Source: an uncultured Pseudomonadales bacterium
Lineage (GTDB): Bacteria > Patescibacteriota > Microgenomatia > UBA1400 > MFAQ01
Direction: 5' to 3'
NCBI GenBank assembly: GCA_964439805.1
Contig: CAYTOI010000003.1
Coordinates: forward strand, 36,844 to 100,843
Length of the DNA: 64,000 nt
The translations under genes were made by a program, and so were the position numbers. The notes beneath the pieces were generated by a model. That model saw nothing but the letters and a program-made list of their open reading frames with translations. It was not told the DNA's origin and made no database searches. How positions within the stretch are numbered: position 1 is the first letter of the stretch; each line of letters opens with the position of its first letter. Positions 3,557-52,952 of this stretch are shown one piece after another.

Positions 3557-3621
3557 GTCATTGCGCGAAGCACAGTAGTGCTGAGTCCCGACTCACAGTC
3601 GGGAAGAATCTGTGGCAATCC
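3557..3621 (+). repeat. repeat family C copy 1 (GTCATTGCGCGA...hairpin...GCAATC)
   Basis: About 75% identical to 52888-52952; contains two hairpins (agcac-agt-agtgct and cccgact-cac-agtcggg). Confidence 0.5.
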
Positions 3622-4202
3622 AGAAATAAAACAGAAAAACATTCGGGTTTATATACAAATAAATAGAACCAGTAAATAGAAACCAAAAAGTAGAAGAAAA
3701 ACTCAAGAACCTTCCTTAAGAGAGTAACTAGCTACAAGTTTCGGGATTTTATCCGAAATGATCAGGAACAGAAAACTTATACTCCCCAGGCTCACTGGAT
3801 TGAGATACGTCGCAAAAGTATCATTGTGCGACATATAGGAAACCATTCTTCTCCGGTCTACACTAACTCCCCAAGTGGGGAACAGCAGAAGAAAAATAAA
3901 AATCTATAAATAATTTCAATTAAAACTGTGCTCAATACGCCTTCGGTCGAGCACAAAACAATTACCTTTACTTTGGAGAAAAGCCTAACCCCACTCCGAG
4001 CCTCTAGGCACGAATTTCTATATCACACTGTATCATTTACACTTATCCACAAATATCGTGAAAACAATTCTATTTCGTGAAAATTATAAGACACTCTGTG
4101 CCTAATGTTTATATTATAGGATATATACTATAGGTCTCTCCCCTTCCCCTCTTAGCCTCAACAAAAAATATTTTGTGCCTAATTGAATTATTTCAAGCTT
4201 GT

Positions 4203-5030
4203 TTAGCCTCCGGTCCAGGATGTAGTCAAAAATCCAATGATTACGATAATAAAGACCGTGGCCAGGTACTCCACTGCACTCTCCAAGTAGACTTTACTAG
4301 ACAGTCTCTGCTCCATCACGCCTAATAAGGCATAAAGAATTGATGTCAGCATTAGCCCACCCATAAAAGGCTTAACGGGCCAAAAGGCCAAGACTAGAGA
4401 AACAAGCCCCACTAGCCACCCTACAGTCAAAGAAAACCTTCCTATCTCCGCAACATAGTTATTCTTTAGGTCCACACTCCAAAACGAAGGAAAGCTCAAA
4501 ATAAATGACGTCGCAAAAGCTCCTAAAAATATCCAATAAAACGGTAGTTTTAGGCTCAAAATAGCTGTGAAAAAAAACAGGGATGTTACCAAGGTCAAAA
4601 TAAAGTTTACCGATCTTGCAGCCCTAAAAAGCTGAATAGTTCTAATTGATGCCACCGAAAATATATTTTCGATAAGCATTACACCATAAAGTCCAATCGC
4701 AAAGAAAATGTAATAGATAATTCTGAAGATACTGGCAAAGAGCATAGCAGACTCCACTTGAAATACTTTCCCAAAAATTCTAGGAATAGAGTTTGGCAAA
4801 AAGTTCGAAAATAACGCGCTCCCCAATGTAAACATTACCGGCAATACTAGTAATGTCAGCCACTCCATACCCTTCAAATCGTCAAAAAGAACCCAAACCG
4901 AGAGAATATATGCAAAAGCTGAAATACCGAGAGACAAACCAAATCGATACTCTACAGGTGCCAAACTTGATAGCCACAAAGAAAGTGCGACCAAAAAAGC
5001 AACTAATACAAATCTTGTTCTTTTATACAT
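4203..5030 (-). CDS. integral membrane protein, function unknown
   Basis: 275 aa with 7-8 hydrophobic segments. Confidence 0.45.
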   Translation of the reverse strand: MYKRTRFVLVAFLVALSLWLSSLAPVEYRFGLSLGISAFAYILSVWVLFDDLKGMEWLTLLVLPVMFTLGSALFSNFLPNSIPRIFGKVFQVESAMLFASIFRIIYYIFFAIGLYGVMLIENIFSVASIRTIQLFRAARSVNFILTLVTSLFFFTAILSLKLPFYWIFLGAFATSFILSFPSFWSVDLKNNYVAEIGRFSLTVGWLVGLVSLVLAFWPVKPFMGGLMLTSILYALLGVMEQRLSSKVYLESAVEYLATVFIIVIIGFLTTSWTGG

Positions 5031-5032
5031 TT

Positions 5033-5557
5033 TTAAGCCAAGTTGCTCCAGACATCCACCACATCATCCATGTCCAAAAGCAACTGAAATAGTTTTTCTA
5101 ACTGTTTTTTATCTTCGTCAGGTAAAGAAATAGTTGGTAATGGACTAATAGATTTCATATAAGAAACAGAGCCAGGTCCACCTAACTTAGCTGAATTTTT
5201 TTCGAGAACATTTTTTACTTCGCCTCCAGTGCGATTACGATTATCAGTAATAACAGTTACCAAAATTCCTACGCCACCCAAACCATACGCTTCATAGACA
5301 ATTTCTTCCGCCACGTCTCCCTCATTATTTCCCAAAGCTTTATCAATTGCTCTTTTAATGTTTTCCATCGGCATATTTACAGATCTAGCGTCTTCTACAC
5401 AAGCTCTCAAAAATGGATTGGCGTTAACATCGCCAGAACCACCATTTTGGACGGCTATACGGATCTTTTTTGCTATTTTTGTAAATACAGCGCTACGTTT
5501 GCTGTCTTCTATAGCTTTTTGGTGTTTTATGGTAGACCATTTTGAGTGCCCTGACAT
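5033..5557 (-). CDS. yebC: YebC/PmpR-family transcriptional regulator (short form)
   Basis: N-terminus MSGHSKWSTIKHQK and TDNRNRT motif; 174 aa, shorter than the canonical ~240 aa. Confidence 0.85.
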   Translation of the reverse strand: MSGHSKWSTIKHQKAIEDSKRSAVFTKIAKKIRIAVQNGGSGDVNANPFLRACVEDARSVNMPMENIKRAIDKALGNNEGDVAEEIVYEAYGLGGVGILVTVITDNRNRTGGEVKNVLEKNSAKLGGPGSVSYMKSISPLPTISLPDEDKKQLEKLFQLLLDMDDVVDVWSNLA

Positions 5558-5610
5558 GTTTCAAGTATATCATTGACATCTTTATCACAAAATTATATAT
5601 TCACTGCAGC

Positions 5611-6321
5611 ATGCAAAACGAATTAACTAAAGATTTGAATCAGGAAGCAATAAAAGCCGCCGTAGCCAACAACTGGCCACTAGCAATAGAACACAATTTA
5701 GCCATTTTGGAATCCGACCCACTAGACGTCGCCGCTCTTAACAGATTAGGTATTGCCTACTCCATGACACAGAAGAATTCTGAGGCGATGAAAACATTTC
5801 AAAAAGCTCTAGAGCTCGACTCACGCAACCAAATAGCCAAAAACAATATCAGCCGTTTAAAAATAAATAAGTCCTCTGGGCTTATGAACCGATCTCTTCA
5901 AAGCACCGTCAGTTTCATTGAGGAGCCAGGCAAATCAAAAGTCATTCCACTAGTAAGTCAAGGTGAGCCAAAAGTTTTCTCCGAAATTACCATTGGTGAA
6001 GAAGCAAATCTCGTTGCTAACAAGCACAAAATCAAAGTTGTTTCAGACAGCAAACAATTTATTGGTTACCTACCTGATAATATTGCCCACAGAATGATAG
6101 AACTACTCAATGCAGGCTACAAATACAAAACTACAATTAAGTCTGTAAATCCCAAGAGCCCCTGTGTCTTTATACAAGAAACTCACTCTAGTAAAAAACT
6201 CAAAGGTGCACCATCTTTCCCCTTGGACGACGCCGACCACTTGCCATCTTTATCCGCAGGAGACTCTAGCGAAACCCCTCCCTTGGAAATTTTCGACCCC
6301 ATGGCCGGAGAAGAAAACTAA
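5611..6321 (+). CDS. TPR-repeat protein
   Basis: TPR-like helices (AALNRLGIAYSMTQKNSEAMKTFQKALELD). Start chosen at the ATG (MQNELTKD) because the longer ORF would overlap yebC. Confidence 0.5.
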   Translation: MQNELTKDLNQEAIKAAVANNWPLAIEHNLAILESDPLDVAALNRLGIAYSMTQKNSEAMKTFQKALELDSRNQIAKNNISRLKINKSSGLMNRSLQSTVSFIEEPGKSKVIPLVSQGEPKVFSEITIGEEANLVANKHKIKVVSDSKQFIGYLPDNIAHRMIELLNAGYKYKTTIKSVNPKSPCVFIQETHSSKKLKGAPSFPLDDADHLPSLSAGDSSETPPLEIFDPMAGEEN

Positions 6322-6322
6322 G

Positions 6323-7183
6323 TTACAGAATCCAAACCTCCACTCCATCGCCACCCGCCTTTTTCTCTGCTTTGGTGGTAATATTTCTACACCCAGAATA
6401 ATTCGTAAGCAAATAATCTGTGTATTCATGTCCTCCAACAGACTTATATACGCACCCTGATCCGGAAAATTTTTCCCCTGTCCCTGCAGTAACTTCTACT
6501 ACTCTAAGCCCTGCAGACTCTAACTGGCGAGATAATAGTAGCCCTGCTCCATTTACATTAGTTAAGTTTCGCACTTTTACATTAGAATTTTCACCAAGCA
6601 ATGTATCAAAAACAAATTTATTTTTGGTCCATAAGTTTATGACACTATTTATTTCCATAAATTCTTTTCCATCTGGATCAGCCTTAATATCTAGTGCAGC
6701 GTCAGGAATTTCTACTTCAAAATATTTTTTTGAGCTTACACTATTTACCAAGTCTTTCCGAAAAGCTATCCTATCTCTGATACTCAAATCTGTTTGTAAA
6801 CTAATTTTATGAAGCACTCCTAACAAGTTCTCTGGGGTCGCTAAGCCCTTCACCTTAACCACTCTGGGTAACAAGACACCCAAAGTATTAGAAAGAGACT
6901 TACCCACTATTTGATAAGCATTGTGCTCCGACAAACCATACTTCCAAAGGGATAGTAAAGGATAGACTGCACTAGAGTTATAAATCCGCACCGATAGGTT
7001 TTGAGGCAGTCTCACCCAAGTCATCATCCCCTCTTGTGGCCGAATAAGAACAAGAGACACATCCAAGTCCCCTACAACAACGATATTAACCCCAAGCTTA
7101 CTAGAATATATTCCTTTCTTTGCAAAACCAGCTATCAAAAGAACCACAAAAACAGCCACAAATAAATATCCCAAACGTCTCAT
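6323..7183 (-). CDS. LytR_C / LCP-like cell-envelope protein with N-terminal membrane anchor
   Basis: N-terminal TM segment; C-terminal V.V.NG.G..GLA (VRNLTNVNGAGLLLSRQLESAGL) resembles the LytR C-terminal domain. Confidence 0.4.
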   Translation of the reverse strand: MRRLGYLFVAVFVVLLIAGFAKKGIYSSKLGVNIVVVGDLDVSLVLIRPQEGMMTWVRLPQNLSVRIYNSSAVYPLLSLWKYGLSEHNAYQIVGKSLSNTLGVLLPRVVKVKGLATPENLLGVLHKISLQTDLSIRDRIAFRKDLVNSVSSKKYFEVEIPDAALDIKADPDGKEFMEINSVINLWTKNKFVFDTLLGENSNVKVRNLTNVNGAGLLLSRQLESAGLRVVEVTAGTGEKFSGSGCVYKSVGGHEYTDYLLTNYSGCRNITTKAEKKAGGDGVEVWIL

Positions 7184-7201
7184 AAATCATTCTAACAAAA
7201 A

Positions 7202-7954
7202 TCAATCTACTTCCTTTAGTGTTTTCAACAAATACTCACAGTCCTCTGGCAGCGGTGCCTTTACTTCTACTTTTTCTCCAAACTCATCTTTAAAACTTAG
7301 ATAGTAAGCATGCAAAAAATGATGATATAGCAGATGTTTCTCTCTACTAAACTGCTTACCATTCAAATATTTTGCATCAGCAAAAATTGGCCAACCCAAA
7401 AAAGACAAATGAACTCGAATCTGATGAGTTCTGCCTGTTTTCAAACCTACGTCAAGTAATGACAAAGTATTTTTCCATTGCTCGTTTTCTGTGCCAAACT
7501 CAAAGTACTTCAATACTTTCCACATAGTTATAGCTTTCTTTCCATCAAACCGGACTTTCCATCTATCTCTATCAATGATGCTTCGTTTAAGTGGCAAAAT
7601 CACATCACCCTCTTTGGGGTCAACTCGTCCATGAACTAGAGCCAGATAAGATTTCGTAATTTTTCGATCTTTAAAAAGACCCAAAAAATACTTCATGGTG
7701 GTAGGATTCTTAGCAATAAGCAGACAACCACTAGTTTCTTTATCTAGTCTATGGCACACTCCACTTCTAGCTAAAAACAATTCATTATCTTGAGTTCTTG
7801 ATTCCTTGAGTTCTTGAGTTTTTAAATCATATCTACTCTCCACCCAGTCCTGTACCGTCCTGCCTTTTATCGAATCAGCTCTGTTAACCACCACCCCAAA
7901 GGGCTTATTAATTATCAAAAAGTTCTCATTCTCAAATAGTATTGGTAGATCCAT
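7202..7954 (-). CDS. RluA-family 23S rRNA pseudouridine synthase
   Basis: HRLDKETSG catalytic motif and GRTHQIRVH. Contains an in-frame family-A repeat insertion ([14 protein letters not shown]). Confidence 0.85.
   Translation of the reverse strand: MDLPILFENENFLIINKPFGVVVNRADSIKGRTVQDWVESRYDLKTQELKESRTQDNELFLARSGVCHRLDKETSGCLLIAKNPTTMKYFLGLFKDRKITKSYLALVHGRVDPKEGDVILPLKRSIIDRDRWKVRFDGKKAITMWKVLKYFEFGTENEQWKNTLSLLDVGLKTGRTHQIRVHLSFLGWPIFADAKYLNGKQFSREKHLLYHHFLHAYYLSFKDEFGEKVEVKAPLPEDCEYLLKTLKEVD
7788..7823. repeat. repeat family A copy, (GAGTTCTT)n octamer array, in frame inside rluA-family gene
   Basis: tcttgagttcttgattccttgagttcttgagttttt; 40 nt including flank identical to the copy in cysS at 39351-39390. 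Confidence 0.8.
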
Positions 7955-8360
7955 CTGGGCTTAGTATATACGACAATACCGAAAAGGTAATCAAAAGATC
8001 CGACAGATTCACCCACAGTCCTACAGTTTTGAAGATAATATAATCCCATACATCACCAAAAATAAGCCTAGGAAGTACGTTACCCAATGCCCCAAAAGCT
8101 AAAGCAATCAAAAATACGTTGACTCCCTTCCCCTTCCATACCAAAGAAAATATAAAACTCAAAAAAATAATTGCTGGCAAAACCAATACCCAAAAGTTCA
8201 AGTTCTGAGCAAAGCCAAAGGATATCCCTGAGTTTGCCAAGCCAAAATTTATTTTACGAAAGTGCGATTGTAGAAAAAAGTCCAGCAAAACAACTATCAC
8301 ACCGACCAACACAAACAGCGAACTAAAGCTGTCCTTTTTCTTTTTTGGATTCACATTCAA
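7932..8360 (-). CDS. lspA: lipoprotein signal peptidase II
   Basis: NSGISFGF and GALGNVLPRLIFGDVWDYI match the LspA conserved boxes; 4 TM segments. Confidence 0.7.
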   Translation of the reverse strand: MNVNPKKKKDSFSSLFVLVGVIVVLLDFFLQSHFRKINFGLANSGISFGFAQNLNFWVLVLPAIIFLSFIFSLVWKGKGVNVFLIALAFGALGNVLPRLIFGDVWDYIIFKTVGLWVNLSDLLITFSVLSYILSPDGSTNTI

Positions 8361-8709
8361 TACAGAACTCTGCTGTAGGAGTAATTGCCAATCTGTCAGT
8401 ATCTATCATCTTGTGACACGCTGTACAAATTCCATACTTACCCACCTTAATTCTAGCCAAAGTTTTTCGAATTGATATTATAGATCTACTTACCATTTTG
8501 CGCATCGCAAAGGCTCTATCGTGTTCTACGTTCTCTGCTACATCTGCATCAACAGAGTTATCATCATCTCGGTTACCAATTATAAAAGGATCAACTTTTT
8601 TTAGCTCTTTCTTTGAGTCTTTTAATTTTTTTTCTTCTCCTTTAAGAAATCGCACCAAAGGAGCTAACACTGTAGATGGGAAGCCTACTTTTTGATTCTT
8701 TTGTTCCAT
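8323..8709 (-). CDS. DksA/TraR-family C4 zinc-finger protein
   Basis: C-terminal CTACHKMIDTDRLAITPTAEFCIEC (CxxC...CxxC) typical of DksA/TraR. Confidence 0.65.
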   Translation of the reverse strand: MEQKNQKVGFPSTVLAPLVRFLKGEEKKLKDSKKELKKVDPFIIGNRDDDNSVDADVAENVEHDRAFAMRKMVSRSIISIRKTLARIKVGKYGICTACHKMIDTDRLAITPTAEFCIECESKKEKGQL

Positions 8710-9425
8710 ATATTTATGCTTTTTAAATCGTCTGCTAATAACCTACCTGACCTAATATACACCAAAACCATTCCTCCAATAAACAGTATAAACATTAAAA
8801 CTACATTAAAAGCCCCAAAACCTCGAAACAAAATATTCTCTAGTACAAAACTAGCTCCCAAAAACACCAAGGTGAAACCGGAAACAAAACCAGACTTTGC
8901 AAATGTCTTTGAACCTCTATACCAAGAAATATGCCTATATGTTTTCTCTAGCTGCCAAAACCACAAAAATCCCAAGAAATTTACCCCCGCAATTACCAAG
9001 TTCTGCCAGTAAAAATTAATAAAGTTAAGTCCTACCCAAAAAAACGCAGAACCTGATAGCACTCCCAGTGCAGCCAAATCATAATAATCAAAGTACTTTC
9101 CCTTTTTCTTTTTGACAATATAAAAAACTGCAAGAATTATACCTATAAGTGCTCCCCATCTCTCTATTCCAGGATAATTAACCAGTAAAAATATTCTGGA
9201 CCAATGACCAGCAAAGCTTTCCAAGTGAGTCAATACAAAGCTAATTCTTCCCAAAATAAAACTCCAAAACGCAGACAGAACAACAATATCCAGAGCCACA
9301 TTATCTTCAATATGAGACTCAATAGCTTTTTTATAAAAAACAAAACCACCCCACAAATAAACAAAAAACACCACCAGACCAAGCGTGTAGATCATAAAAT
9401 TTGATACTGCAATTGTCTCTCCCAT
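8685..9425 (-). CDS. polytopic membrane protein, possible prolipoprotein diacylglyceryl transferase-like
   Basis: 7 TM segments; weak resemblance to Lgt (GRISFVLTH, W..G...HW) and adjacency to lspA. Not secure. Confidence 0.3.
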   Translation of the reverse strand: MGETIAVSNFMIYTLGLVVFFVYLWGGFVFYKKAIESHIEDNVALDIVVLSAFWSFILGRISFVLTHLESFAGHWSRIFLLVNYPGIERWGALIGIILAVFYIVKKKKGKYFDYYDLAALGVLSGSAFFWVGLNFINFYWQNLVIAGVNFLGFLWFWQLEKTYRHISWYRGSKTFAKSGFVSGFTLVFLGASFVLENILFRGFGAFNVVLMFILFIGGMVLVYIRSGRLLADDLKSINIWNKRIKK

Positions 9426-9434
9426 AAGTCTCTA

Positions 9435-9899: not shown

Positions 9900-9954
9900 G
9901 TCCGTCATTGCGCGAGTCCGTCATTGCGAGGAGTGTAATAACGACGTGGCAATC
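9899..9954 (+). repeat. repeat family C copy 2
   Basis: gtccgtcattgcgcgagtccgtcattgcgagg...gtggcaatc; shares both termini with copies at 3557 and 52888. Confidence 0.45.
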
Positions 9955-10015
9955 TACAACCTGTTAATTTTGGACTACCACAGCTCTTTGTGCTTGGCAG
10001 TGACGACATCAATTA

Positions 10016-10047
10016 GAGTTTTGCGTTTTTGAATTTTAGAGTTTTTT
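10016..10047. repeat. degenerate repeat family A copy (intergenic)
   Basis: gagttttgcgtttttgaattttagagtttttt. Confidence 0.4.
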
Positions 10048-11262: not shown

Positions 11263-11269
11263 AGTTAAG

Positions 11270-17271: not shown

Positions 17272-17295
17272 GTCATTCCTGCGAGGCAGGAATCC
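17272..17295 (+). repeat. repeat family C-related hairpin (gtcattcctgcgaggcaggaatcc)
   Basis: Perfect 8-bp stem attcctgc-gag-gcaggaat; shares its GTCATT...GCGAGG core with family C. Confidence 0.4.
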
Positions 17296-17315
17296 ATTCA
17301 GACACTCCATATTTA

Positions 17316-17349
17316 GAGTTTTTGAGTTCTTGAGTTCTTGAGTTTTTTT
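17316..17349. repeat. repeat family A copy (intergenic)
   Basis: gagtttttgagttcttgagttcttgagttttttt. Confidence 0.75.
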
Positions 17350-19186: not shown

Positions 19187-19540
19187 ATGAAACAGAATAT
19201 TCATCCTCAATACGAACAAATGGAAGTAAATTGTGCCTGCGGCAACAAATTTGTTGTTGGCGGAACCCGCAAAACACTTCACATCGACGTATGTGACAAA
19301 TGCCACCCTTTCTTTACTGGTACCCAAAAATTCATCGACGCTCTAGGTAGAGTAGACAAATTTATGGCCAAGAGAACTGCTGCTGCAGGATATGTAAAGA
19401 AGAACAAAAAAGGTTCTGATACTGTAGACTCCACTCCTAAGACACTCAAAGAAATGCTCGAGGCCAAAAAAGCCGCCGATGCTAAAGTGAAAAAAGAAGT
19501 TGTTGAAGCTGTCGAAGAAGCCACTCCAGCCACTGTCTAG
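19187..19540 (+). CDS. rpmE: 50S ribosomal protein L31 with Lys/Ala-rich C-terminal extension
   Basis: MKQNIHPQY, CxC...CxxCHPFFTG zinc ribbon; about 45 extra C-terminal residues. Confidence 0.85.
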   Translation: MKQNIHPQYEQMEVNCACGNKFVVGGTRKTLHIDVCDKCHPFFTGTQKFIDALGRVDKFMAKRTAAAGYVKKNKKGSDTVDSTPKTLKEMLEAKKAADAKVKKEVVEAVEEATPATV

Positions 19541-22748: not shown

Positions 22749-23963
22749 CTTGGGTTCTTGAGTTTTTGAGTTCTTCAGTTCTTTAAGTACTTCCAACGCC
22801 TTCTCCAACTGATTATCAGCCTTAGGATCTTTCTCATTATATTTAAACTCCACTTTCACATCTGGTTCAAGTCCATCACCATGAATATTTTTTCCAGAAG
22901 GAAGCAACCATTCAGCAATAGTAACGTGCAAAGATGAACCATCACCAATTTCTTGTGCTTCTTGTACAGTCCCTTTTCCAAAACTCTTCTCTCCTACTAG
23001 CTTAACCCCAAGTCTTTCTTTGAGCGCTCCAGCTAATATTTCTGACGCTGATGCAGAACCTTTGTTGATAAGTACTACAAGTGGCATACCAATTAGTTTT
23101 CCTTTGCGATCTACATTAAGAGACTCAGTCCCCTTTCTGTCTCGCTGAGAAACTATCACTCCATCACTTATAAACTCACTACCAAGGTCTACAGCTCTCT
23201 GTAGGTATCCACCAGGGTTATTTCGAACGTCTAGAATTACACCAGTAGCTTTTTTTGCTAGAATTTCTTTTACAAATCCTTCCCACTCTGGCAATGTTTT
23301 CTCTCCAAACTTGTTTACTCTTATTACGGCTACTTTGCCATTATCAATCCACTCAAGCTCTGTAGAAGGTACATTTATCATGTCGCGAACCAATGCAATC
23401 TCTTTACTTTGTTTTTCTTTTACTGAAAATATTGTAAGTTTCACGGTAGTCCCCTTTTCTCCTCGAATCAGATTAACTGCCTCCTCAAGACCAATTCCAG
23501 AAGTATCTTTCTTTACTCCCTTAGCCTCATCAACAATTTTCAAGATCAAATCCCCTGCCACAATCCCGGCTTTAGCTGCCGGACTGTCTTTGATAGGGCT
23601 CATAACCGCCAAAGTTTTCTCTACATACCCTAGCTGAATTCCGACACCACCAAATTCACCTTTAAGGTCTTCTTTTGATCTTGTATTTTCTACTGGTGGA
23701 AAAAAGGCAGTGTAAGGATCGCCCAAAGAAGCAGTCATTCCCTCAGCTGCCCCATACATGAGTTTTTTAGCGTCAATTGCTTCTGGCTTAAGATAGTCTT
23801 TCTTCAACCTCTCAAGGACATTATTCATGACCTTGGTGTTTACTTCACTAGGTACATTACTACTAGATAATAGCTGTCTCTCTTTATATACAGAGCCGCC
23901 TACAAACGACATTCCAGCAACAAAAATAACAACCAAAAAGTTACGAACGTTCTTCAAGTTCAT
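22746..23963 (-). CDS. ctpA: carboxyl-terminal processing protease (S41 family)
   Basis: PDZ plus S41 peptidase domain; N-terminal membrane anchor. The last 12 codons including the stop are built from a family-A repeat. Confidence 0.85.
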   Translation of the reverse strand: MNLKNVRNFLVVIFVAGMSFVGGSVYKERQLLSSSNVPSEVNTKVMNNVLERLKKDYLKPEAIDAKKLMYGAAEGMTASLGDPYTAFFPPVENTRSKEDLKGEFGGVGIQLGYVEKTLAVMSPIKDSPAAKAGIVAGDLILKIVDEAKGVKKDTSGIGLEEAVNLIRGEKGTTVKLTIFSVKEKQSKEIALVRDMINVPSTELEWIDNGKVAVIRVNKFGEKTLPEWEGFVKEILAKKATGVILDVRNNPGGYLQRAVDLGSEFISDGVIVSQRDRKGTESLNVDRKGKLIGMPLVVLINKGSASASEILAGALKERLGVKLVGEKSFGKGTVQEAQEIGDGSSLHVTIAEWLLPSGKNIHGDGLEPDVKVEFKYNEKDPKADNQLEKALEVLKELKNSKTQEPK

Positions 23964-25656: not shown

Positions 25657-26698
25657 CCCCTATCATGTATTCCACGACATCTCCGTCTTTCATCACATAT
25701 TCCTTTCCCTCCATCCCCACCTTGCCCTTCTCCGCCGCTTCCTTCCAACCACCTAGTGCCACAAAGTCATCATACTTACATACTTTGGCTTTTATAAACT
25801 TCTTTTCAAAATCAGTGTGAATTACTCCAGCTGCCTGAGGGGCTCTTGTTCCATCTGTTATCGTCCAAGCTCTAGTTTCGGTAACTCCAGTCGTCAAAAA
25901 GCTAATAAGACCTAAAGTTTCGTAAGCTTTACGAATCAATCTATCTAGCCCTGACTCATTTAATCCCATCTCAGCAAGAAACATTTCCGCTTCCTCCTCT
26001 GGCAAACTACTTATTTCCGCCTCTATCTTGGCAGAAACACACAAATCTCCTCCGCTCACTCTCAACCTAGCATCATTTTCACTCACATTAAACACTTTAA
26101 TCTCTTTCTTCGCAGTCAACATACACAAATCTTTCACCAGCTCCAGCTCATCAAAAGCCAAAATCTCCCTTGCGGGTTTATTTTCATTTAAACCAACCCA
26201 AAGTCTCTCAACTAATTCTTTTTTCTTTAACTGTCTTGGGTCCTTGAGTTCTGGAGTTCTAGAGTTCTTTACTTTATCTACTGTTTCCAAATCCTTAAGT
26301 ATCAGCTCAGTTTCTATTACTTCGTAGTCAGTTTTTGGATCAACACTCCCCTCTTTTACAATTTCTTTATCATTAAAGTCGCGCAAAACCTGAAGTATTA
26401 CGTCCACCTCTCTAATATGTGTCAAAAACTTGTTTCCAAGACCAGCTCCAGTAGCAGCTCCAGCTACAAGACCAGCAATATCTACAAACTCCACAGTAGC
26501 AGGAACAATTTTGACACTACTAGACATCTTAGCTAGCACCTCAAGACGCTTATCTGGAACCTCAACAATACCCACGTTCGGCTCAATGGTGGCAAAGGGA
26601 TAATTGGCTACCAAAGCTTGCTGCTTCTTTAGAAGCGCATTAAATAACGTCGATTTCCCGACGTTTGGCAACCCCACAATCCCTACTTTAAGTGACAT
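25652..26698 (-). CDS. ychF: ribosome-binding ATPase YchF (Obg-family GTPase)
   Basis: GIVGLPNVGKSTLFNAL P-loop; TGS-like C-terminus. In-frame family-A repeat (VKNSRTPELKDPRQ) in the central helical domain. Confidence 0.9.
   Translation of the reverse strand: MSLKVGIVGLPNVGKSTLFNALLKKQQALVANYPFATIEPNVGIVEVPDKRLEVLAKMSSSVKIVPATVEFVDIAGLVAGAATGAGLGNKFLTHIREVDVILQVLRDFNDKEIVKEGSVDPKTDYEVIETELILKDLETVDKVKNSRTPELKDPRQLKKKELVERLWVGLNENKPAREILAFDELELVKDLCMLTAKKEIKVFNVSENDARLRVSGGDLCVSAKIEAEISSLPEEEAEMFLAEMGLNESGLDRLIRKAYETLGLISFLTTGVTETRAWTITDGTRAPQAAGVIHTDFEKKFIKAKVCKYDDFVALGGWKEAAEKGKVGMEGKEYVMKDGDVVEYMIGA
26235..26270. repeat. repeat family A copy, in frame inside ychF
   Basis: tccttgagttctggagttctagagttcttt. 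Confidence 0.7.
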
Positions 26699-36389: not shown

Positions 36390-37154
36390 ATGCGCCGAAT
36401 ACTGGCGGATCTCTTCTCCATCTCACTAGTCTTTTATTTGCTGATGTTTTTGCTGGAAAATATTTTCCCCAAAATCATCAGCAATGTCTTTAATCTTAAC
36501 TACTTACTAATTCCCGTCATGATCTTTGGCGTTCTCTCAGCGCTGCTTCCTCTACCAGAAAGTGAACAACCAAAAGACGAGTACAAAAGATCAGACCTCT
36601 GGTGGTCCTTACTTCTTTCTATTTTGGGCGGCGCACTTATCTACTACAAAATCGACTTACAACCTACTCTCCGCATTAGCATCTCTCTCCTCTCTACTCT
36701 CCTTATTGGCCTTATGTCTGTCCTCATAATTTTGCCCGAAGACTACGAAATCTCCGTGCCAAAAATTAAGTGGTGGATATCACTAATCCTTATTCCTGTT
36801 TTAATTTTTGGCTACTCAAAAATAAATTTCACTTCACAACCAACAGTAATTGAAGAAACCATCATCAGAAAGTCACCTGATCTTTACCAAATAATTCTTA
36901 TCAATAGAAGTGAGGACAAAGACTTTGGCGAAACCTATCGCCAGCTAATAGTAAACAATGACTACAAAAACATCACCACAGTTAGCACAGATACCTACCC
37001 CCAGACCACTTCTCAAGCCACTGTTATCTTTAGCCCGGAAGACGCTAGTGCCGGCCAAGAAATCGCCGATCTACTGCACCAATCCATCCCAAATGTACAG
37101 ACCATGCCACCTAGCAAAAACATTCCTCAACAAATAATTATTATCCTAAAGTGA
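36390..37154 (+). CDS. hypothetical membrane protein
   Basis: 5-6 TM segments. Confidence 0.4.
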   Translation: MRRILADLFSISLVFYLLMFLLENIFPKIISNVFNLNYLLIPVMIFGVLSALLPLPESEQPKDEYKRSDLWWSLLLSILGGALIYYKIDLQPTLRISISLLSTLLIGLMSVLIILPEDYEISVPKIKWWISLILIPVLIFGYSKINFTSQPTVIEETIIRKSPDLYQIILINRSEDKDFGETYRQLIVNNDYKNITTVSTDTYPQTTSQATVIFSPEDASAGQEIADLLHQSIPNVQTMPPSKNIPQQIIIILK

Positions 37155-39233: not shown

Positions 39234-40613
39234 CTATTTGTCTTTTACCGTAACTCCCATAGCTATTAGCTGATCGCGAAGTCTATCCGCCTCTGCCCAG
39301 TTCTTCTCGGCTCTAAATCTCTCCCTCTCCTCCACCATTTTATTTATATCTTCATTATCTTGAGTTCTTGATTCCTTGAGTTCTTGAGTTCCCAAATTTA
39401 GCCCCATCACCTTATCAAACTCTAGTAACAAATATTTTTTCTCTTCGTCGGCCAGATCACCCTTCATCATCTCCCAAACTACTGCTAGAGCCTTTGGCAT
39501 ATTCAAATCATCCTCCACCGCTTCAGCAAATTTACTTATAAATACTTCCACATCTTGAGCTCTTGATTCCTTGAGTTCTAGAGTTCTTGACATGAAATTT
39601 ACCAATTTCATATACGCCTTCTCCGCCCCCTCTATCGCTTCCCAAGTAAAGTTCATTTGTTTTCGGTAGTGCGCAGTTAGGTACAGATACCGAAGTGCCA
39701 TGGCCGAATACCCTTTCTCTACTATGTCACTGACTCTATAAACATTCCCCAAGCTTTTACTCATCTTCTTTCCATCTACCATCAAAAAACTGCTATGAAA
39801 CCAATATTTCACAAATGGCTTCTTACCCGTGCCTGCTTCACTCTGAGCAATCTCATTTGGGTGATGAATAGAAACGTGATCTTCTCCTCCAGTATGCAAA
39901 TCTATTTGCTCACCCAAGTACTTCATACTCATCGCCGAACACTCTATGTGCCAACCAGGAAATCCATCTCCCCAAGGGCTGTTCCAATGCATTACATGAT
40001 CTTTATGTTTACCAACAGTTTTAAACCACAAGGCAAAATCAGCAGGACTCTTTTTGCTATTATCTGTCACCACTTCTTCTCTCACTCCCACTAGCTTTTC
40101 ATCTATAGACTGGCCAAAAAGTTTTCCATAATCAGGGAATCTACTCACATCAAAATAAACTGCTTCTGGAGTGTCGTAGGCGTATCCATTGGCAATTATT
40201 TTCTTGATTAGTTCTATCTGATCTTCTACATGTTCCGTAGCTTTGCACTGAATAGTGGGCCGAATAATATTGAGTGAGTCCATTTCTTTTAGGAAATAAT
40301 CTGTGTACTCCTCTGCTACTTGCCATACTGTTTTCCCGTACTTCATAGCCCCCTTCTCTAGCTTGTCTTCGCCTTCGTCTCCGTCAGAAACCAAGTGACC
40401 TACATCGGTAATATTTTGAACATGAGTAACATTTAAGTTTTCAGTGTTTTCCAAAACTCTTTTGAGAATATCGTCGTTGACATATTTACGGCCGTGACCA
40501 ATATGAGGAAAGTCGTAAACCGTAGGGCCACAAGCATACATTCCCACTTCACCAGGTTTACTAGGAACAAACTCTTCAGTTTGTTTGGAAAGAGAATTAA
40601 AAATCTTGAGCAT
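39234..40613 (-). CDS. cysS: cysteine--tRNA ligase
   Basis: HIGH ([10 protein letters not shown]) and KMSKS motifs. Two in-frame family-A repeat insertions near the C-terminus. Confidence 0.9.
39358..39390. repeat. repeat family A copy, in frame in cysS (copy 1)
   Basis: 40 nt identical to the rluA copy. Confidence 0.8.
39554..39588. repeat. repeat family A copy, in frame in cysS (copy 2)
   Basis: tcttgagctcttgattccttgagttctagagttcttga. Confidence 0.75.
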
Positions 40614-46265: not shown

Positions 46266-46274
46266 TTCAAACAA

Positions 46275-46906: not shown

Positions 46907-46909
46907 GTC

Positions 46910-47230: not shown

Positions 47231-47245
47231 ATTTTACCTCATTTT

Positions 47246-47316
47246 GAGTTTTTGCGTTTTTGCACTTTGAGTTTTATTTTCTTGAGTTCTTGATTTCTAG
47301 AGTTCTCGAGTTCTTA
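47246..47316. repeat. repeat family A, longest copy (about 9 degenerate octamer units), intergenic between dnaX and ybaB
   Basis: gagtttttgcgtttttgcactttgagttttattttcttgagttcttgatttctagagttctcgagttctt. Confidence 0.75.
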
Positions 47317-48831
47317 ACTAAATATCTTCTCCACATCCACCGCCACAGTATTCACATTCGCATCCTCCGAATTCGGCTCTGTCCTCGCCGGCATGTCTAT
47401 CAAAACCGTTTTCAATGTCACCGGTCCCCAAATTCTTTGCATTTCTTGTTCAATTATTTTTTTCTTTGTATCCCTCTCAATCATGTCTTGCTGAAAACGC
47501 GACTTTACTGACAAGGTCAAAGACTTTCCTTGCAAATCCATAGGTGCCGAGTTTCTTAGCATTCCAGCAAGAGACCCATTACTTGCTGCAAAATTATCCA
47601 AAAATCCTCCCCATTCTTCTTTTATTTTTTCTATCGATGCTTTCATATCAGCTACGCTCTCTAGAGAAACTACTTTATCAACTTCTTTTTTTTCTTCTAT
47701 CACTACTGGAATTTCCTCTACAGGTGCAGGACGAACTACAGTTTCAACCTTCCTTTCAATTGCTGGTGCTTTAGCCGGCTCTACTTCTTTCGGCACCCCA
47801 CCACCACTATTATTGATAGAACTAGACAAAATTGCCATCTCCAAAGGCAGTAACGGATCTGGAGATATTTTTATTTTCTCTGCCGAGCTGACTAGCCCAT
47901 CAACCAAAGCAATTAAACTGCGAACATTTGCCCCACTTTTTACCGATATTTCAATTTGAGATTTTAGATACGTAAGCATCGCTACCAAAACCACTTGAGC
48001 CTTTACCCCATTACTTTCCATAATCATAAAGCTCTCCACAACCTCAGAAGATTTTCCAGACAATGCCGCCTCAATCACTTTTTTGACCAAGACATTACTT
48101 ACCGATCCCAGGTTCTTATTTACCAAATCCCTGTCGATATCCACCCCAAAGCTAGCCAGCTGTTCCAGCACCTTGTGGGCTTCCCGGAAACTCCCGTCCG
48201 CCACCTCTGTAATGGCCTCCAAGGCCTCCATATCGGCTTTCAGCTTCTCTCCTGCAACTACACGCATCAGAGACTCTACCATCTCGGATTTGGTCGCTTT
48301 GGTGAAGTTTATCTTTGAGCACCTGCTGACTATAGTCTCAGGCACCTTGTGAGCCTCTGTTGTACAGAGAATAAACATGGCGTGCTTAGGAGGTTCTTCT
48401 AGGGTTTTAAGAAGTGCATTAAACCCAGCAGTAGACACCATGTGAACTTCATCGATAATATAAATTTTCTTTCTAAGCTGTAGCGGAGAAAGGCGAACTT
48501 TGTCTCTCAAATCTCTAATGTCTTCCACTAGTCCATTACTTGCCGCATCAATTTCTATTACATCTACACCACTTCCATGAATCAGAGATTTGCATGGTTC
48601 ACAAACCCCACATGGTTCATGCAACTCACTCACCAAATCTTTATTAAGATCACAATTGACAACTTGCGAAAGGATTCTCGCCGTACTAGTTTTCCCAGAT
48701 CCGCGAGGACCCACAAACAGATACGCATGAGACACTTTTCCACTTTTCAAAGCAGCCTCCAAAGCACCACGAACCGACAACAAATTCAGCTCTGCAATTT
48801 TTTGGGGTCGATACTTTTGGTAATAACTCAC
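47314..48831 (-). CDS. dnaX: DNA polymerase III subunit gamma/tau
   Basis: Walker A GPRGSGKTSTARIL; zinc module CGVCEPC; clamp-loader boxes. Confidence 0.9.
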   Translation of the reverse strand: MSYYQKYRPQKIAELNLLSVRGALEAALKSGKVSHAYLFVGPRGSGKTSTARILSQVVNCDLNKDLVSELHEPCGVCEPCKSLIHGSGVDVIEIDAASNGLVEDIRDLRDKVRLSPLQLRKKIYIIDEVHMVSTAGFNALLKTLEEPPKHAMFILCTTEAHKVPETIVSRCSKINFTKATKSEMVESLMRVVAGEKLKADMEALEAITEVADGSFREAHKVLEQLASFGVDIDRDLVNKNLGSVSNVLVKKVIEAALSGKSSEVVESFMIMESNGVKAQVVLVAMLTYLKSQIEISVKSGANVRSLIALVDGLVSSAEKIKISPDPLLPLEMAILSSSINNSGGGVPKEVEPAKAPAIERKVETVVRPAPVEEIPVVIEEKKEVDKVVSLESVADMKASIEKIKEEWGGFLDNFAASNGSLAGMLRNSAPMDLQGKSLTLSVKSRFQQDMIERDTKKKIIEQEMQRIWGPVTLKTVLIDMPARTEPNSEDANVNTVAVDVEKIFS

Positions 48832-48898
48832 TCTCTAACGTTAGGTCTTTTTGAAACTTCTGTCAACAGTAAAAAACTGATACAAAAAGAACCCCACA

Positions 48899-49246
48899 TT
48901 ATATGGGGTTCGTAGTAATACGTAACGTTTTACTGCTAGCTGTTTTTTCAAAAACTCTGGTGATCACAATGTCACCACCATTCTCAAACTTCACCGAAAC
49001 ACGCTCACAATTAAGATCCCAGGAGATCGACTCACCCGGCAAAAAAGCAATTCTTGCTTGCATGCCTTTTACAAAATACTCGCCTTTAACAGATCGATTG
49101 CGAAATTTTGTGAGTCTGGGTTGCGTCTCTCCAAGTTTAATTGATAAAACTGCAAAATTAACTTGCTTTCCAACCAATTCCTCATAAATTCTCTTGATTA
49201 CAGACTCGTGATTTGAACCACTTACAGTCATGGAAATGCCAATCAT
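48899..49246 (-). CDS. hypothetical protein (115 aa)
   Basis: ORF upstream of dnaX. Confidence 0.35.
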   Translation of the reverse strand: MIGISMTVSGSNHESVIKRIYEELVGKQVNFAVLSIKLGETQPRLTKFRNRSVKGEYFVKGMQARIAFLPGESISWDLNCERVSVKFENGGDIVITRVFEKTASSKTLRITTNPI

Positions 49247-49302
49247 TTTGCCTCCAGTAAATTAATGTGAATTTCCCAAAATTATACACCTATTGCCAAA
49301 AA

Positions 49303-49692
49303 TCAATCGTGGTGCACGCCCAAAAGGTGCAGTAACCCGTGACAAGCCAAAAACTCAATTTCTTCATCAACTAGTCTATTCCACTGCATGGCCTGCCTCT
49401 TTGCCTGTGGGTAGCAAACGACTATATCTCCCAAACTTTCTTCATCCAAGTCTTTTGGCATCTCCATACCTTCTTCTAGGGGAAAGGATAGCACATCAGT
49501 AATTTCATCTCTCTGAAAATACTTCATCTCCAGCTCTCGAATTTTGCGTTCTCCAACAACACTCAAAGAAATATTAAAAACTCCAGTGTCTCTTCCCTGC
49601 TCCAGAAGAACTTTTTCCAAGCCAGCCTTTACCTTCTTACGGTCAAAGCTATAACGACTATCCGAAGAAACGGACAAATTTAGTTTAAACAT
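49303..49692 (-). CDS. ybeY: endoribonuclease YbeY (rRNA maturation factor)
   Basis: HGLLHLLGVHHD (H3xH5xH) zinc motif. Confidence 0.85.
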   Translation of the reverse strand: MFKLNLSVSSDSRYSFDRKKVKAGLEKVLLEQGRDTGVFNISLSVVGERKIRELEMKYFQRDEITDVLSFPLEEGMEMPKDLDEESLGDIVVCYPQAKRQAMQWNRLVDEEIEFLACHGLLHLLGVHHD

Positions 49693-49695
49693 ATT

Positions 49696-50127
49696 TTATG
49701 AAAATTTCTCGTTGACCAGTTTTTGCACTACTCCCCCATCAGTCTTTCCTTTTAACTTTCCCATCACAGCTCCCATCAGTCTTCCACCTCTAAGTCCTGT
49801 CTCTTCTGCCACTTTAGCAATTTCCACAGACACTTCCTCTTCAGTCATCTGAACAGGCAAATATCCTTCAATTATCTTCAGTTCATTTTTCTCAGACTCC
49901 ACTAGCTCAGGTCTATTAGCATTGGTATATGCCTCTATAGAGTCTTTTCTCTTTTTGGCTTCTTTCGCCAAAACTCGAATAACTTCTGTGTCTGGCAATT
50001 CACCACCCTTAAAGTCTACCTGTGCATACGACAACTCAGACAAAATGAGTTTTAATACTCCAACCAAATAAGAGTTTTTCTCTTTTTGGGCTGTAGTTAA
50101 ATCTGATTTTATCTGAGTGTATAACAT
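49696..50127 (-). CDS. yqeY: GatB/YqeY-domain protein
   Basis: YqeY-like sequence; conserved rpsU-yqeY pairing. Confidence 0.7.
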   Translation of the reverse strand: MLYTQIKSDLTTAQKEKNSYLVGVLKLILSELSYAQVDFKGGELPDTEVIRVLAKEAKKRKDSIEAYTNANRPELVESEKNELKIIEGYLPVQMTEEEVSVEIAKVAEETGLRGGRLMGAVMGKLKGKTDGGVVQKLVNEKFS

Positions 50128-50128
50128 G

Positions 50129-50353
50129 CTATTTGGTGAAACCTGCGTTTCGCTTGTTTCTACGTCTTATTCTGGCTGAAGCTTTACGAAGCTCAGTCAT
50201 CTTAACGCTTTTAATTTTAGAAGGCTTAAGAAATCCAGTCATTCCTACCGTTCTTACACGGTCCAAACCCTGATCTTCATAAGTAAGTTTCTTAAACTCA
50301 CTAATGAGTTGTTGAGTACTTTGTCCTTGTTTTCTTTTTGATACTAATGCCAC
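50129..50353 (-). CDS. rpsU: 30S ribosomal protein S21
   Basis: EFKKL...F.KPS.K basic pattern resembling S21 (RFKR...FYEKPS); position upstream of yqeY. Confidence 0.6.
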   Translation of the reverse strand: MALVSKRKQGQSTQQLISEFKKLTYEDQGLDRVRTVGMTGFLKPSKIKSVKMTELRKASARIRRRNKRNAGFTK

Positions 50354-50420
50354 AAAAATGCACCTACCTTCCTATTTTTTATTTAATTAAATAATTCGTA
50401 ATTTTAACAAACCCTCCAAA

Positions 50421-50457
50421 TCTTGAGTTTTTGAGTTCTTGATTCTTTGAGTTCTTT
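50421..50457. repeat. repeat family A copy (intergenic)
   Basis: tcttgagtttttgagttcttgattctttgagttcttt. Confidence 0.7.
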
Positions 50458-50843
50458 TATGTGGTTCCCCCTGGCTCCTTGGCCGATCCTCCCAGAATGT
50501 GCACGTGTTCATGCTCAAAATGGTTGTATCCTGCTCCATTGTTGACCAGTTTGTAGCCCGTCTTGTCCAATCCAAGCTCCGTAACTACAGTAAAAACCGA
50601 CAACATCATTTTACCCCAGAACTCACTCAATGTCACCCCCACATTTGGAGCCTCAATCCAAGCTTTTTTAGCCTCGTGGGATTTGGGAATTACTAGCACA
50701 TGGACCGGTGCTACAGGATATTTGTTCTCAATGCACATAAACTCCTCATTCTCCCAAACAATGACCGCTGGCTCCTCCTTGGCCGCTATTTTGCAAAACA
50801 GACACTTTTCATCTTTCATATCAAAATAACTTAATAATGTCAC
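50457..50843 (-). CDS. HIT-family (histidine triad) nucleotide hydrolase
   Basis: HEHVHILGG HxHxHxx motif; N-terminal CLFCKI. Confidence 0.8.
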   Translation of the reverse strand: MTLLSYFDMKDEKCLFCKIAAKEEPAVIVWENEEFMCIENKYPVAPVHVLVIPKSHEAKKAWIEAPNVGVTLSEFWGKMMLSVFTVVTELGLDKTGYKLVNNGAGYNHFEHEHVHILGGSAKEPGGTT

Positions 50844-51897
50844 GGACTGTCACCACTGCCATAAGGGTTAGTAGCAGCACCATACCAATTGTGTGAACGT
50901 ACCCCTCAAACTTATTCTTAAGCCTCTTCCCAATAACCATTTCTACAAGCAAAAAGAAAAGTCTTCCACCATCCAAAGCTGGGAAAGGCATAATATTCAA
51001 AACACCTAAGTTGATAGATAGTATGGCCATAAACTGAATTACTGCCAAAAACCCTACGCTATACGCTTGCTTGCTGACGTTATAAATCCCTACTGGCCCA
51101 GCAATGTCTTTTGGTATTCCCTTTCCGGTCACAATTCCCCAAACAAAAGTTCCCAAGCCACTTACAATTTCCTTACCCCAAGCCCAAGCTTCCCCCATAC
51201 CAACCCACATTCCTCGGAAAGGCCTCTCCCAAAGTGGATACATCTTCATTTCCATATTTCCTAGAGCTACTCCCAAAGAACCTTGGCCTACTGGCGGATT
51301 CTGTCTTGGAGTTATTTTTGTTTCTCTCCCCTCCCCTTTTTCATTTTTCAAACTCAATGTAATTTCTTTTCCTTTTAAAGGTTCTAGTTGTTTTATAAAC
51401 CCTTCTACCCCTTCAAATTTAACAATCCCTTTGCCAAAAGAAACTCCCACTATTTGATCTTTTTCCTTTAACCCAGCTATCTCTGCAGGAGACCCACTGG
51501 CAACTTCTACAATAAAAACTTTATCTGTTTTTGTGGGAATTCCTAAATATGTATAGATCGCCCCAAAAGCAAAAACTCCAAGTAAAAAGTTCATAAACAC
51601 CCCAGCCAAGAGTACCAAAGCTCTTTGCAAAATGGGCTTATTAAAAAAAGCTTCAGGAGAATTTGCCTGCACCGAGTCGTCCGGGTCTTCACCATAAAGC
51701 TTTACAAACCCACCCAAAGGAATCCAGTTCAAACTGAACAAAGTTCCCCACCTGGTAAATAACCCTTTTGCTCGTGGTGGCAAACCAATACCAAACTCAT
51801 CAACACGCATTCCAAAAAATTTGGCAACCACATAATGGCCTACCTCATGAATCAATACTAAAAGTGAAAGAATAAGAACAAAAACAACAATTTGCAT
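50821..51897 (-). CDS. rseP: RIP (site-2) zinc metalloprotease RseP
   Basis: HEVGHYVVAKFFG HExxH in TM1, PDZ domain, C-terminal LDGG motif. Confidence 0.85.
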   Translation of the reverse strand: MQIVVFVLILSLLVLIHEVGHYVVAKFFGMRVDEFGIGLPPRAKGLFTRWGTLFSLNWIPLGGFVKLYGEDPDDSVQANSPEAFFNKPILQRALVLLAGVFMNFLLGVFAFGAIYTYLGIPTKTDKVFIVEVASGSPAEIAGLKEKDQIVGVSFGKGIVKFEGVEGFIKQLEPLKGKEITLSLKNEKGEGRETKITPRQNPPVGQGSLGVALGNMEMKMYPLWERPFRGMWVGMGEAWAWGKEIVSGLGTFVWGIVTGKGIPKDIAGPVGIYNVSKQAYSVGFLAVIQFMAILSINLGVLNIMPFPALDGGRLFFLLVEMVIGKRLKNKFEGYVHTIGMVLLLTLMAVVTVRDIIKLF

Positions 51898-51952
51898 TAT
51901 TCAATTCTAAACTATAAACTTCGCACCAACCACTAGGCACTTCGCACTCCAA

Positions 51953-52516
51953 TCAAAACGCCATTATCTCCGCCTCTTTTTTACTAGCCATCTCCTCTAT
52001 TTTTGCAGTGTATTCGTTGGTTACTTTATCTAGCTGCTCCAGAAGAGAAAAGATCTGATCCTCAGAAACAGTCTTAGATTCTTTAAGAGCATCAATTTTT
52101 TCTTTTACATCTTGTCTGGCTTGTCGCAAAATTATTTTTGCCGACTCCATCTTTTGCTTTAATAGTTTTACAAAATCAATTCTTCTTTCTTGAGTAAGTG
52201 AAGGAATAACAATGCGTATAATGTCTCCTGATACTGCCGGCGAAAGTCTCATTTCACTGCTACTAATAGCTTTTTCAATTGCTCCCATTAAACCTTTGTC
52301 GTAAGGCGATACCACTAATAAGTTTGGATCAGGAGCTGAAATACTTGCCAGTTCCAATAGCTTCATCCAACCACCATAAGCGGGAACCATTAAACCCTCC
52401 ACAAGATCTGGCTTGGCTCTGCCCACCCGAACCGTGGCAAAATCTTCCTCTGTGTTTTCCATTACCTTGGCAAAGTTTTGCTTAAGCAAAACAATCAAAT
52501 CTGCATCTGTATTCAT
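51953..52516 (-). CDS. frr: ribosome recycling factor
   Basis: 187 aa; conserved RRF core (RVGRAKPDLVEGLMVPAYG...). Confidence 0.9.
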   Translation of the reverse strand: MNTDADLIVLLKQNFAKVMENTEEDFATVRVGRAKPDLVEGLMVPAYGGWMKLLELASISAPDPNLLVVSPYDKGLMGAIEKAISSSEMRLSPAVSGDIIRIVIPSLTQERRIDFVKLLKQKMESAKIILRQARQDVKEKIDALKESKTVSEDQIFSLLEQLDKVTNEYTAKIEEMASKKEAEIMAF

Positions 52517-52564
52517 ATCCTCAATTTTATCACTACCAACATTTTTATATGATTTAATAAATAT

Positions 52565-52885
52565 ATGCTAACCAAAACTGACTTAGCCCAAATTAAAGAT
52601 CTGCTTAAAGACCTTCCTACCAAAAAAGAAGTTAAAAAAGAAATTGAATCATCAATTATCGATAATAATAAGCGCATGGCTAAAATTTTTGTGACCAAGC
52701 AAGACCTAGAATGCCTTGTTTCCAAAGATGAATACCACAAGGCTGTGGATCAAATACTCACAACTCTGGATGGTATCTACGGAATCGTCAAAAACTTTGA
52801 TCAAGAAAATCTTATTACTTCCCACAAGCTTAGTGATCACGATATAAGAATCTCCAAAATTGAGAAAAGCATCTTCGCCAACTAA
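52565..52885 (+). CDS. hypothetical protein (106 aa)
   Basis: ORF followed 3 nt later by repeat family C copy. Confidence 0.4.
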   Translation: MLTKTDLAQIKDLLKDLPTKKEVKKEIESSIIDNNKRMAKIFVTKQDLECLVSKDEYHKAVDQILTTLDGIYGIVKNFDQENLITSHKLSDHDIRISKIEKSIFAN

Positions 52886-52887
52886 CC

Positions 52888-52952
52888 GTCATTGCACGAA
52901 ACACAGCAGTGCTGATTCCGACTCACTGTCGGGAAACAACCGCAGCAATCTC
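52888..52952 (+). repeat. repeat family C copy 3
   Basis: gtcattgcacgaaacacagcagtgctgattccgactcactgtcgggaaacaaccgcagcaatctc; compensatory change in the hairpin relative to copy 1. Confidence 0.5.

Follow-up and report, generated by a model that had tools for sequence, protein, structure and literature searches.

The elements analysed here are short, oriented hairpins in a 64-kb window (64,000 nt; positions 36,844 to 100,843 of contig CAYTOI010000003.1) from a bacterium of the Candidate Phyla Radiation (CPR). Four copies lie on the plus strand of the window, and a probable, decayed fifth lies on the minus strand (Table 1). Their membership of an oriented DNA hairpin superfamily, which includes the neisserial NTS/dRS3 sequence and the Ssn-related motifs (SRMs), is well supported by architecture; we lean toward reading the copies as satellites of Ssn-type nucleases rather than as RNA elements of the adjacent genes. 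The termini GTC/ATTGC...GCAAT/C (slashes here and below separate structural parts) define a pan-bacterial family that is represented on viral contigs, on plasmids of Alphaproteobacteria, Legionella, and cyanobacteria, and in CPR bacteria.

A pan-bacterial hairpin family

Family members follow the order (Y)GTC, ATTGC, GA, a variable stem-loop, GNR, GCAAT, CC. The pattern GTCATTGCGAG-N(8-38)-GCAATCC matches at least 120 IMG/VR contigs; additional copies, on which a preliminary description of this sequence had made its proposed family depend, are thus plentiful outside the window, and its notion of a dispersed hairpin family with defined termini, resembling repetitive extragenic palindromes (REPs) or miniature inverted-repeat transposable elements (MITEs), is broadly right. 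The commonest form is the 27-mer GTCATTGCGAGCGAAGCGAAGCAATCC, which is found in plasmids of Novosphingobium (at least 40 copies on one replicon), Methylobacterium, Methylosinus, Legionella, and Aulosira. Longer forms retain the termini while the inner hairpin varies, and other long variants exist (e.g., a 66-nt copy in locus L132). In 166 of 181 family members, GTC is preceded by C or T. Inverted doublets are frequent, with the GCAATCC ends always facing each other, and copies also take part in mosaic arrays. On two IMG/VR contigs (L213 and L216), GCAATCC-type inverted doublets alternate with a second hairpin repeat, CATCCTTCGAGGCTCGCTGCGCTCGC...CAGGATGAGGGG, in arrays that resemble neisserial or enterobacterial mosaic elements.

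A covariance model (R1) was built from a 50-sequence alignment that included no sequence from the window. The inner helix of this alignment is 90% paired (94.9% when counted by cells), and each of its six pairs shows changes on both sides; covariation is strong, with a score of 0.39 compared with 0.10 in shuffles and <0.09 for slid partners. The first two inner pairs do not constitute independent evidence, because the seeds were filtered on them. The outer stem covaries between the types ATTGC/GCAAT and ATTCC/GGAAT, with loop and inner hairpin identical; an intermediate between the types is also known (GTCATTCC-GAG-CCAGTGCGCACACTGG-CGTG-GGAATC), and the GTCATTCC...GGAATCC type is present in the Collierbacteria loci L139 and L125. 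Mismatches in the variable helix on the GTC strand are G.A in 101 cases vs. C.T in 7, and only the GTC strand folds well. Selection on the structure, as the preliminary description proposed, is borne out by the inner helix of this wider family, and not by the two window copies from which it had been argued. When R1 is run against the window, its top four matches are the four sites that were originally described (Table 1), and 28 copies are recovered from 1.19 Mb of loci anchored on ribosomal protein S2 (CPR and other).

Copies in the window

The plus strand of the window contains four matches to GTCATTGC-N(20-50)-GCAATC, compared with 0.02 expected from shuffles. The preliminary description listed three copies of about 60 nt plus a related hairpin, and all of these sequences are found where it placed them. 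Copies 1 and 3 are true paralogues that can be aligned over their whole length (64 vs. 63 nt, ~83% identity, one indel); the similarity ends exactly at the termini, and the flanks share no sequence. Their greater length is due to expansion of the upper part. Copy 2, by contrast, is a 35-nt short form, GTCATTGCGAGGAGTGTAATAACGACGTGGCAATC (9920-9954), with a 16-nt tandem duplication of its 5' end in front of it (GTCCGTCATTGCGCGA and GTCCGTCATTGCGAGG); GTCATTGCGCGA, part of the duplicate at 9900-9915, recurs unchanged at the 5' end of copy 1. The R1 match that follows copy 2 on the opposite strand is weak by itself (fifth-ranked in the window), but its place and orientation agree with doublets across the family; together the two probably form a "+ then -" doublet between convergent genes. 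Copy 4 belongs to a sister, NTS-like type and has a perfect 8-bp hairpin (DNA fold z -3.3); its common ground with copies 1-3 is limited to GTCATT...AATCC, and its stem is also present in one IMG/VR contig. The base preceding GTCAT is A, C, C, and T in copies 1-4, respectively, and all four end in AATC followed by C or T. Upstream plus-strand stop codons are 137, 0-20, 2, and 48 nt away from copies 1-4, respectively, as previously reported; the stop codon nearest to copy 3 is that of a 106-aa open reading frame (ORF).

Table 1. Positions of hairpin copies, their parts, and octamer arrays in the 64-kb window, with scores under covariance model R1.
Feature	Position	Strand	Sequence or structure	R1 score and basis
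Copy 1, long form	3557..3621	+	GTC, outer stem, two hairpins; 3' flank CCAG	15.5 bits, E 0.047, rank 2 in window; sequence, folds, model
Copy 1 outer stem	3560-3564 with 3615-3619	+	ATTGC (after GTC) paired with GCAAT	
Copy 1 hairpin 1	3569-3582	+	AGCAC-AGTA-GTGCT	
Copy 1 hairpin 2	3586-3604	+	TCCCGACT-CAC-AGTCGGGA	
Tandem duplicate (16 nt) of copy 2 5' end	9900..9915	+	GTCCGTCATTGCGCGA	
Copy 2, short form	9920..9955	+	GTC/ATTGC/GA/G-GA-GT[GTAATA]AC-GA-C/GTG/GCAAT/CT	30.2 bits, E 4.5e-6, best in window
Decayed inverted partner of copy 2 (probable)	9971..10006	-	GTCACTGCCAAGCACAAAGAGCTGTGGTAGTCC	10.2 bits, E 1.3
Copy 4, sister (NTS-like) type	17272..17296	+	GTC/ATTCCTGC/GAG/GCAGGAAT/CC	14.2 bits
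Copy 3, long form, paralogue of copy 1	52888..52951	+		15.0 bits, E 0.063
Octamer arrays	7790-7821, 17314-17345, 22750-22781, 26236-26267, 39360-39391, 39555-39586	+	(TTGAGTTC)n	
Octamer arrays	47244-47313, 50423-50454, 53943-53958, 55311-55342, 58814-58837, 63655-63686	+	(TTGAGTTC)n	

A compensatory base change had been claimed between copies 1 and 3 in hairpin 2, which reads TCCCGACT-CAC-AGTCGGGA in the former and TTCCGACT-CAC-TGTCGGGA in the latter. This was a misreading: the C-to-T change in copy 3 faces an unchanged G and yields a G.T wobble, an A-to-T change in the same hairpin abolishes the loop-closing pair, and a G-to-A change in the first hairpin creates an A.C mismatch. Because all three stem differences weaken pairing, copy 3 folds more poorly than copy 1, both as RNA (-16.1 kcal/mol, z -1.0, vs. 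-22.2 kcal/mol, z -2.0) and as DNA (-8.6 vs. -13.8 kcal/mol, the latter with z -3.5); with none of the three compensated, copy 3 is partly decayed. An alternative inner pairing in copy 1 (CACAG/CTGTG) was dropped since it is not kept in copy 3, and a conserved peptide was discounted on reading the two sequences because the indel between them shifts the frame.

The long form is known only from the window, since pattern searches for it came up empty elsewhere: the exact 5'-half pattern has no match in GTDB species genomes or in JGI metagenomes. A hairpin-2 pattern gave 15 matches that are all ascribed to chance (all in high-GC contigs, none with GTCATTGC upstream). A BLASTN search of PLSDB with copies 1 and 3 returned nothing relevant. 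A generic "GTCA + 5-bp stem + C" scan was non-discriminating (11 observed vs. 8 expected), and literature searches by sequence string surfaced only primers.

Between copy 1 and a convergent DUF5656-like gene there are 580 nt without genes (3622-4202), which is long for a compact genome. Several stable hairpins occur in this interval (e.g., GTGCTCAATACGCCTTCGGTCGAGCAC), and an Rfam scan of it at E-values up to 5 gave no match.

Orientation, strand composition, and the question of an RNA role

Of 37 CPR copies, 29 have GTC on the locally C-rich strand (most exceptions are second arms of doublets), as do 102 of 137 single copies on unrelated viral contigs (p = 9e-9). The window itself has a GC content of 39% and a GC skew that is uniformly about -0.2 on the plus strand. 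With respect to genes, CPR copies inside ORFs are antisense in 13 cases and sense in three; intergenic CPR copies outside the window are sense to the upstream gene in five cases and antisense in nine; and single copies between co-directional genes, in the 120 listed unrelated contigs, are antisense in 35 cases and sense in nine. Strand composition is the better predictor of orientation.

These counts bear on the possibility that the copies are RNA elements, namely hairpins of 3' untranslated regions (3'-UTRs) that stabilise or terminate the upstream transcripts, as the preliminary description had also considered. Some observations within the window favour such a role: all five copies are sense-oriented and 3' of a gene, stop codons directly adjoin copies 2 and 3, the genes on either side of the copy 2 doublet are convergent, and the hairpins fold as RNA. 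The placement downstream of plus-strand genes in the window is explained by the location of the copies on the C-rich plus strand; that the GTC strand is mostly C-rich, and often antisense to genes, argues against a 3'-UTR role. In addition, a terminator scan identified a canonical intrinsic terminator upstream of copy 1, which lies ~100 nt beyond it, and no T run directly follows any of copies 1-4, so that they do not conform to the definition of an intrinsic terminator. Rfam contains no relevant family for the window or for the loci of canonical copies, at either gathering or E-value thresholds, and the protein SsnA, considered below, does not bind the RNA form of its target (PMC11893778). 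We regard an RNA function of the copies as very improbable.

Proposed relation to Ssn nucleases

The closest known system, Ssn/NTS, was described in 2025 with a motif definition drawn from 29 genomes (Chenal et al., 2025, Nat Commun, PMC11893778). The Neisseria NTS, CGTCATTCCCGCGMAVGCGGGAATCYRG, contains dRS3, and SsnA is a 94-aa GIY-YIG protein that binds and cuts NTS only as single-stranded DNA (ssDNA), and only on that strand (PMC11893778). Cleavage is governed by GTC, the three nucleotides that precede the palindrome, and binding by the C that directly follows it, and the loop tolerates removal or extension; ssn genes are typically bracketed by the motif (PMC11893778). The flanks mapped for SsnA (GTC and C) are exactly those of the window copies. 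The arrangement NTS(+)-ssn-NTS(-) is reproduced in seven contigs, and Ssn homologues encoded on plasmids of Planktothrix and Spirosoma are flanked by hairpins of GA-loop architecture (GTC/ATTCT/GA/GTGAAAC/GA/AGAAT/C and GTC/ATCCC/GA/GGAAC/GA/GGGAT/C, respectively), to which R1 assigns ~9-13.6 bits, near the scores of copies 1, 3, and 4. Measured against the SRM definition, the copies are oriented imperfect palindromes that fold as hairpins (~20-50 nt in the definition, with copies 1 and 3 longer at 64 nt); copies 1-4 have GTC 5' of the palindrome with a non-G base before it (HGTCWY); and C is present 3' of the palindrome, where the RNCYNB tail fits copies 1, 2, and 4 but not copy 3.

Under the proposed mechanism, the GTC-bearing strand would fold once single-stranded, and its basal stem together with the GTC and C flanks would form the target of an Ssn-family enzyme, a small GIY-YIG endonuclease with a single domain, which would nick ssDNA a few nucleotides 5' of GTC. 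The strand asymmetry of the mismatches and the orientation bias lend indirect support to such cutting of one strand as ssDNA. Being dispensable for recognition, the upper part would be free to drift and expand, which would give variants of 27 to 66 nt, among them the two-hairpin form of copies 1 and 3 that is specific to its lineage. The copies themselves would be non-autonomous, REP/MITE-like satellites of the nuclease gene. If the leading strand is G-rich, as is usual, the orientation bias may keep the cleavable strand on the leading-strand template.

Several results weigh against this scheme. The published SRM search string, HGTCWYN(0-2)YYVSBRHN(0-5)WNVSBRGN(0-2)RNCYNB, matches the NTS control but none of copies 1-4, nor the 27-mer. 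Ssn genes encode single-domain GIY-YIG proteins of the cd10448 type, and hidden Markov model searches detected no GIY-YIG gene in the 64-kb window, in its syntenic relative (L003), or in the Collierbacteria loci. A search for an ssn gene bracketed by exact GCAATCC-type copies at NTS-like spacing found only doublet arrays. Thus, we infer, rather than observe, that this genome has an Ssn homologue and that it acts on these copies. Changing the sequence of the palindrome while keeping the hairpin abolishes the activity of Neisseria SsnA (PMC11893778), and a cognate enzyme of different specificity would therefore be required here. Finally, CPR copies often lie inside genes, vs. 2% of NTS in Neisseria.

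Small GIY-YIG ORFs are encoded in three Patescibacteria/Omnitrophota loci (L170 4227-4520, L183 19007-19765, and L202 14417-14695), where they lie inside or next to tRNA genes and duplicated 5' halves of tRNAs. They probably represent a different, tRNA-associated clade, and these tRNA regions contain no such hairpins.

The copies might instead be served by a different protein, such as a RAYT, an IS200/IS605 TnpA, or an IS110-type recombinase, with the resemblance to NTS being convergent or reflecting a shared target. The "+ then -" doublets and mosaic arrays recall REPINs and BIMEs, the strand bias recalls elements that are mobilised as single strands, and dRS3 is known as the target of a phage recombinase (PMC11893778). 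Nevertheless, the neighbours of the 120 listed loci have no protein family in common (the largest cluster, made up of phage structural proteins, spans 15 loci), the GTAG-type head of REPs is absent, and GTC, AT...AT, and C coincide with the determinants of SsnA recognition. We therefore consider service by one of these other proteins unlikely.

It is less likely again that the copies are inert relics of past insertions, with neither present activity nor a partner in a reduced genome. Decay is visible in copy 3 and in the inverted partner of copy 2, only two copies of the long form are known, and the window lacks a nuclease gene, all of which accord with relics. However, L003 carries a copy (9087-9126) at the site of copy 3, directly downstream of the homologous small ORF, that has the same termini and a different interior; the termini are intact in both genomes, although the adjacent M50 proteins are only 56% identical. 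Identical short forms are also shared by divergent Collierbacteria at different loci. L003 carries several further copies, of which the short form at 19441-19473 is near-identical to copy 2. A MAFFT alignment hinted that part of copy 3 resembles the 3' end of the L003 copy, but the similarity is too weak to interpret.

Returning to Ssn-type nucleases, a bolder version of the satellite scheme is possible, and we offer it tentatively. Hairpins with a GA internal loop (GTC/ATTGC/GA...GNR/GCAAT/C) may be a distinct pan-bacterial class of ssDNA recognition sites that is missed by the SRM definition and has its own Ssn clade. Their C-rich placement would then reflect selection against exposing the cleavable strand as ssDNA, this strand being the leading-strand template and often the template strand of genes; the sites could gate incoming or replicating ssDNA in uptake-dependent, genome-reduced CPR bacteria, and in-frame residence in topA and rpsB would be tolerated. 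If the family is a bona fide class of Ssn substrates, the known site space would gain a GC-flipped basal stem, a purine internal loop, and branched upper parts, and the system would extend to CPR bacteria; replication-strand orientation would become a testable rule for how genomes coexist with a nuclease that cuts their repeats when these are single-stranded. For annotation, the family accounts for many spurious small ORFs and for odd in-frame inserts in essential genes.

Host genome and relatives

The window encodes housekeeping genes that include dnaB, dnaX, topA, cysS, efp, rpsB, and tsf. The nearest relatives of its S2 protein are in Candidatus Collierbacteria (Microgenomates, CPR), and the window sequence is identical to Logan contigs of SRR12487046. 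Most Collierbacteria have tsf next to frr or variable inserts between the two, as seen when window 51953-55408 is set against L125-L145. Three loci (the window, L003, and L131) carry a gene for an M50-like peptidase in this interval, on the opposite strand; a small ORF accompanies it in the window and L003. Hairpin copies are located at the junctions.

In the relatives, copies also reside in frame and antisense within essential genes (L003 19248-19285 and 11512-11543, L124 2300-2331, L128 881-912, L130 10008-10039, and L139 9864-9895). One such copy is situated in the Toprim region of topA, where it encodes the peptide GIASVQNTETRNDS, and in five genomes another occupies an equivalent site of ribosomal protein S2, within its N-terminal extension.

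The window also contains tandem arrays of an octamer, (TTGAGTTC)n, with three to five units each, at ~13 loci that are all on the plus strand (Table 1); a 16-mer has 36 matches vs. 1.0 expected. Several arrays are located within minus-strand ORFs, namely in the S2 N-terminal extension, in topA (as the peptide RTQELKNSRTQE), and in cysS, while others abut the stop codons of minus-strand genes. The topA of L003 has KTQKIKTSKTQN at the site of the octamer-encoded peptide of the window topA.

Comparison with known systems

The copies depart from MITEs in that copies 1 and 3 have no common sequence beyond the element itself and no target is duplicated. They resemble REPs and REPINs in being short, extragenic, non-autonomous hairpins with a conserved unpaired 5' head and inverted doublets, and putatively in single-strand recognition by a small nuclease-type protein. 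However, the head is GTC rather than GTAG, the likely partner is a GIY-YIG rather than an HUH Y1 enzyme, and no transposase-like neighbour is shared among the 120 listed loci, as REP/REPIN-RAYT systems would require; furthermore, REPs are species-specific, whereas the termini of this family are kept across phyla. Like attC sites, family members combine a conserved basal stem and internal loop with a terminal structure that is variable and differs greatly in length, and they are (putatively) recognised as folded single strands; unlike attC sites, the window copies have no RYYYAAC/GTTRRRY boxes, cassette arrays, or integrase.

The likeness to dRS3 and neisserial NIMEs concerns the palindromic core of copy 4 (ATTCC...GGAAT) and the clustering with other repeats in mosaic arrays. 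The host here is a CPR bacterium, and the dRS3 consensus itself, ATTCCC-N8-GGGAAT, differs from copy 4 (ATTCCT...AGGAAT, in ATTCCTGC-GAG-GCAGGAAT) and from copies 1-3 (ATTGC...GCAAT). Compared with NTS and SRMs, the GCAATCC type has a G-C pair where SRMs require pyrimidines and a conserved GA/GNR internal loop; in addition, the long form has two hairpins, and CPR copies are frequent within ORFs. The shared features are nonetheless extensive: both are oriented imperfect palindromes of 20-50 nt, with an invariant GTC just 5' and C just 3' of a stem that opens AT(T)...(A)AT, and with a variable, dispensable loop; both are multi-copy, often in inverted pairs, and distributed over multiple phyla. 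The stem of copy 4 is a single compensated base pair apart from that of the Neisseria NTS.

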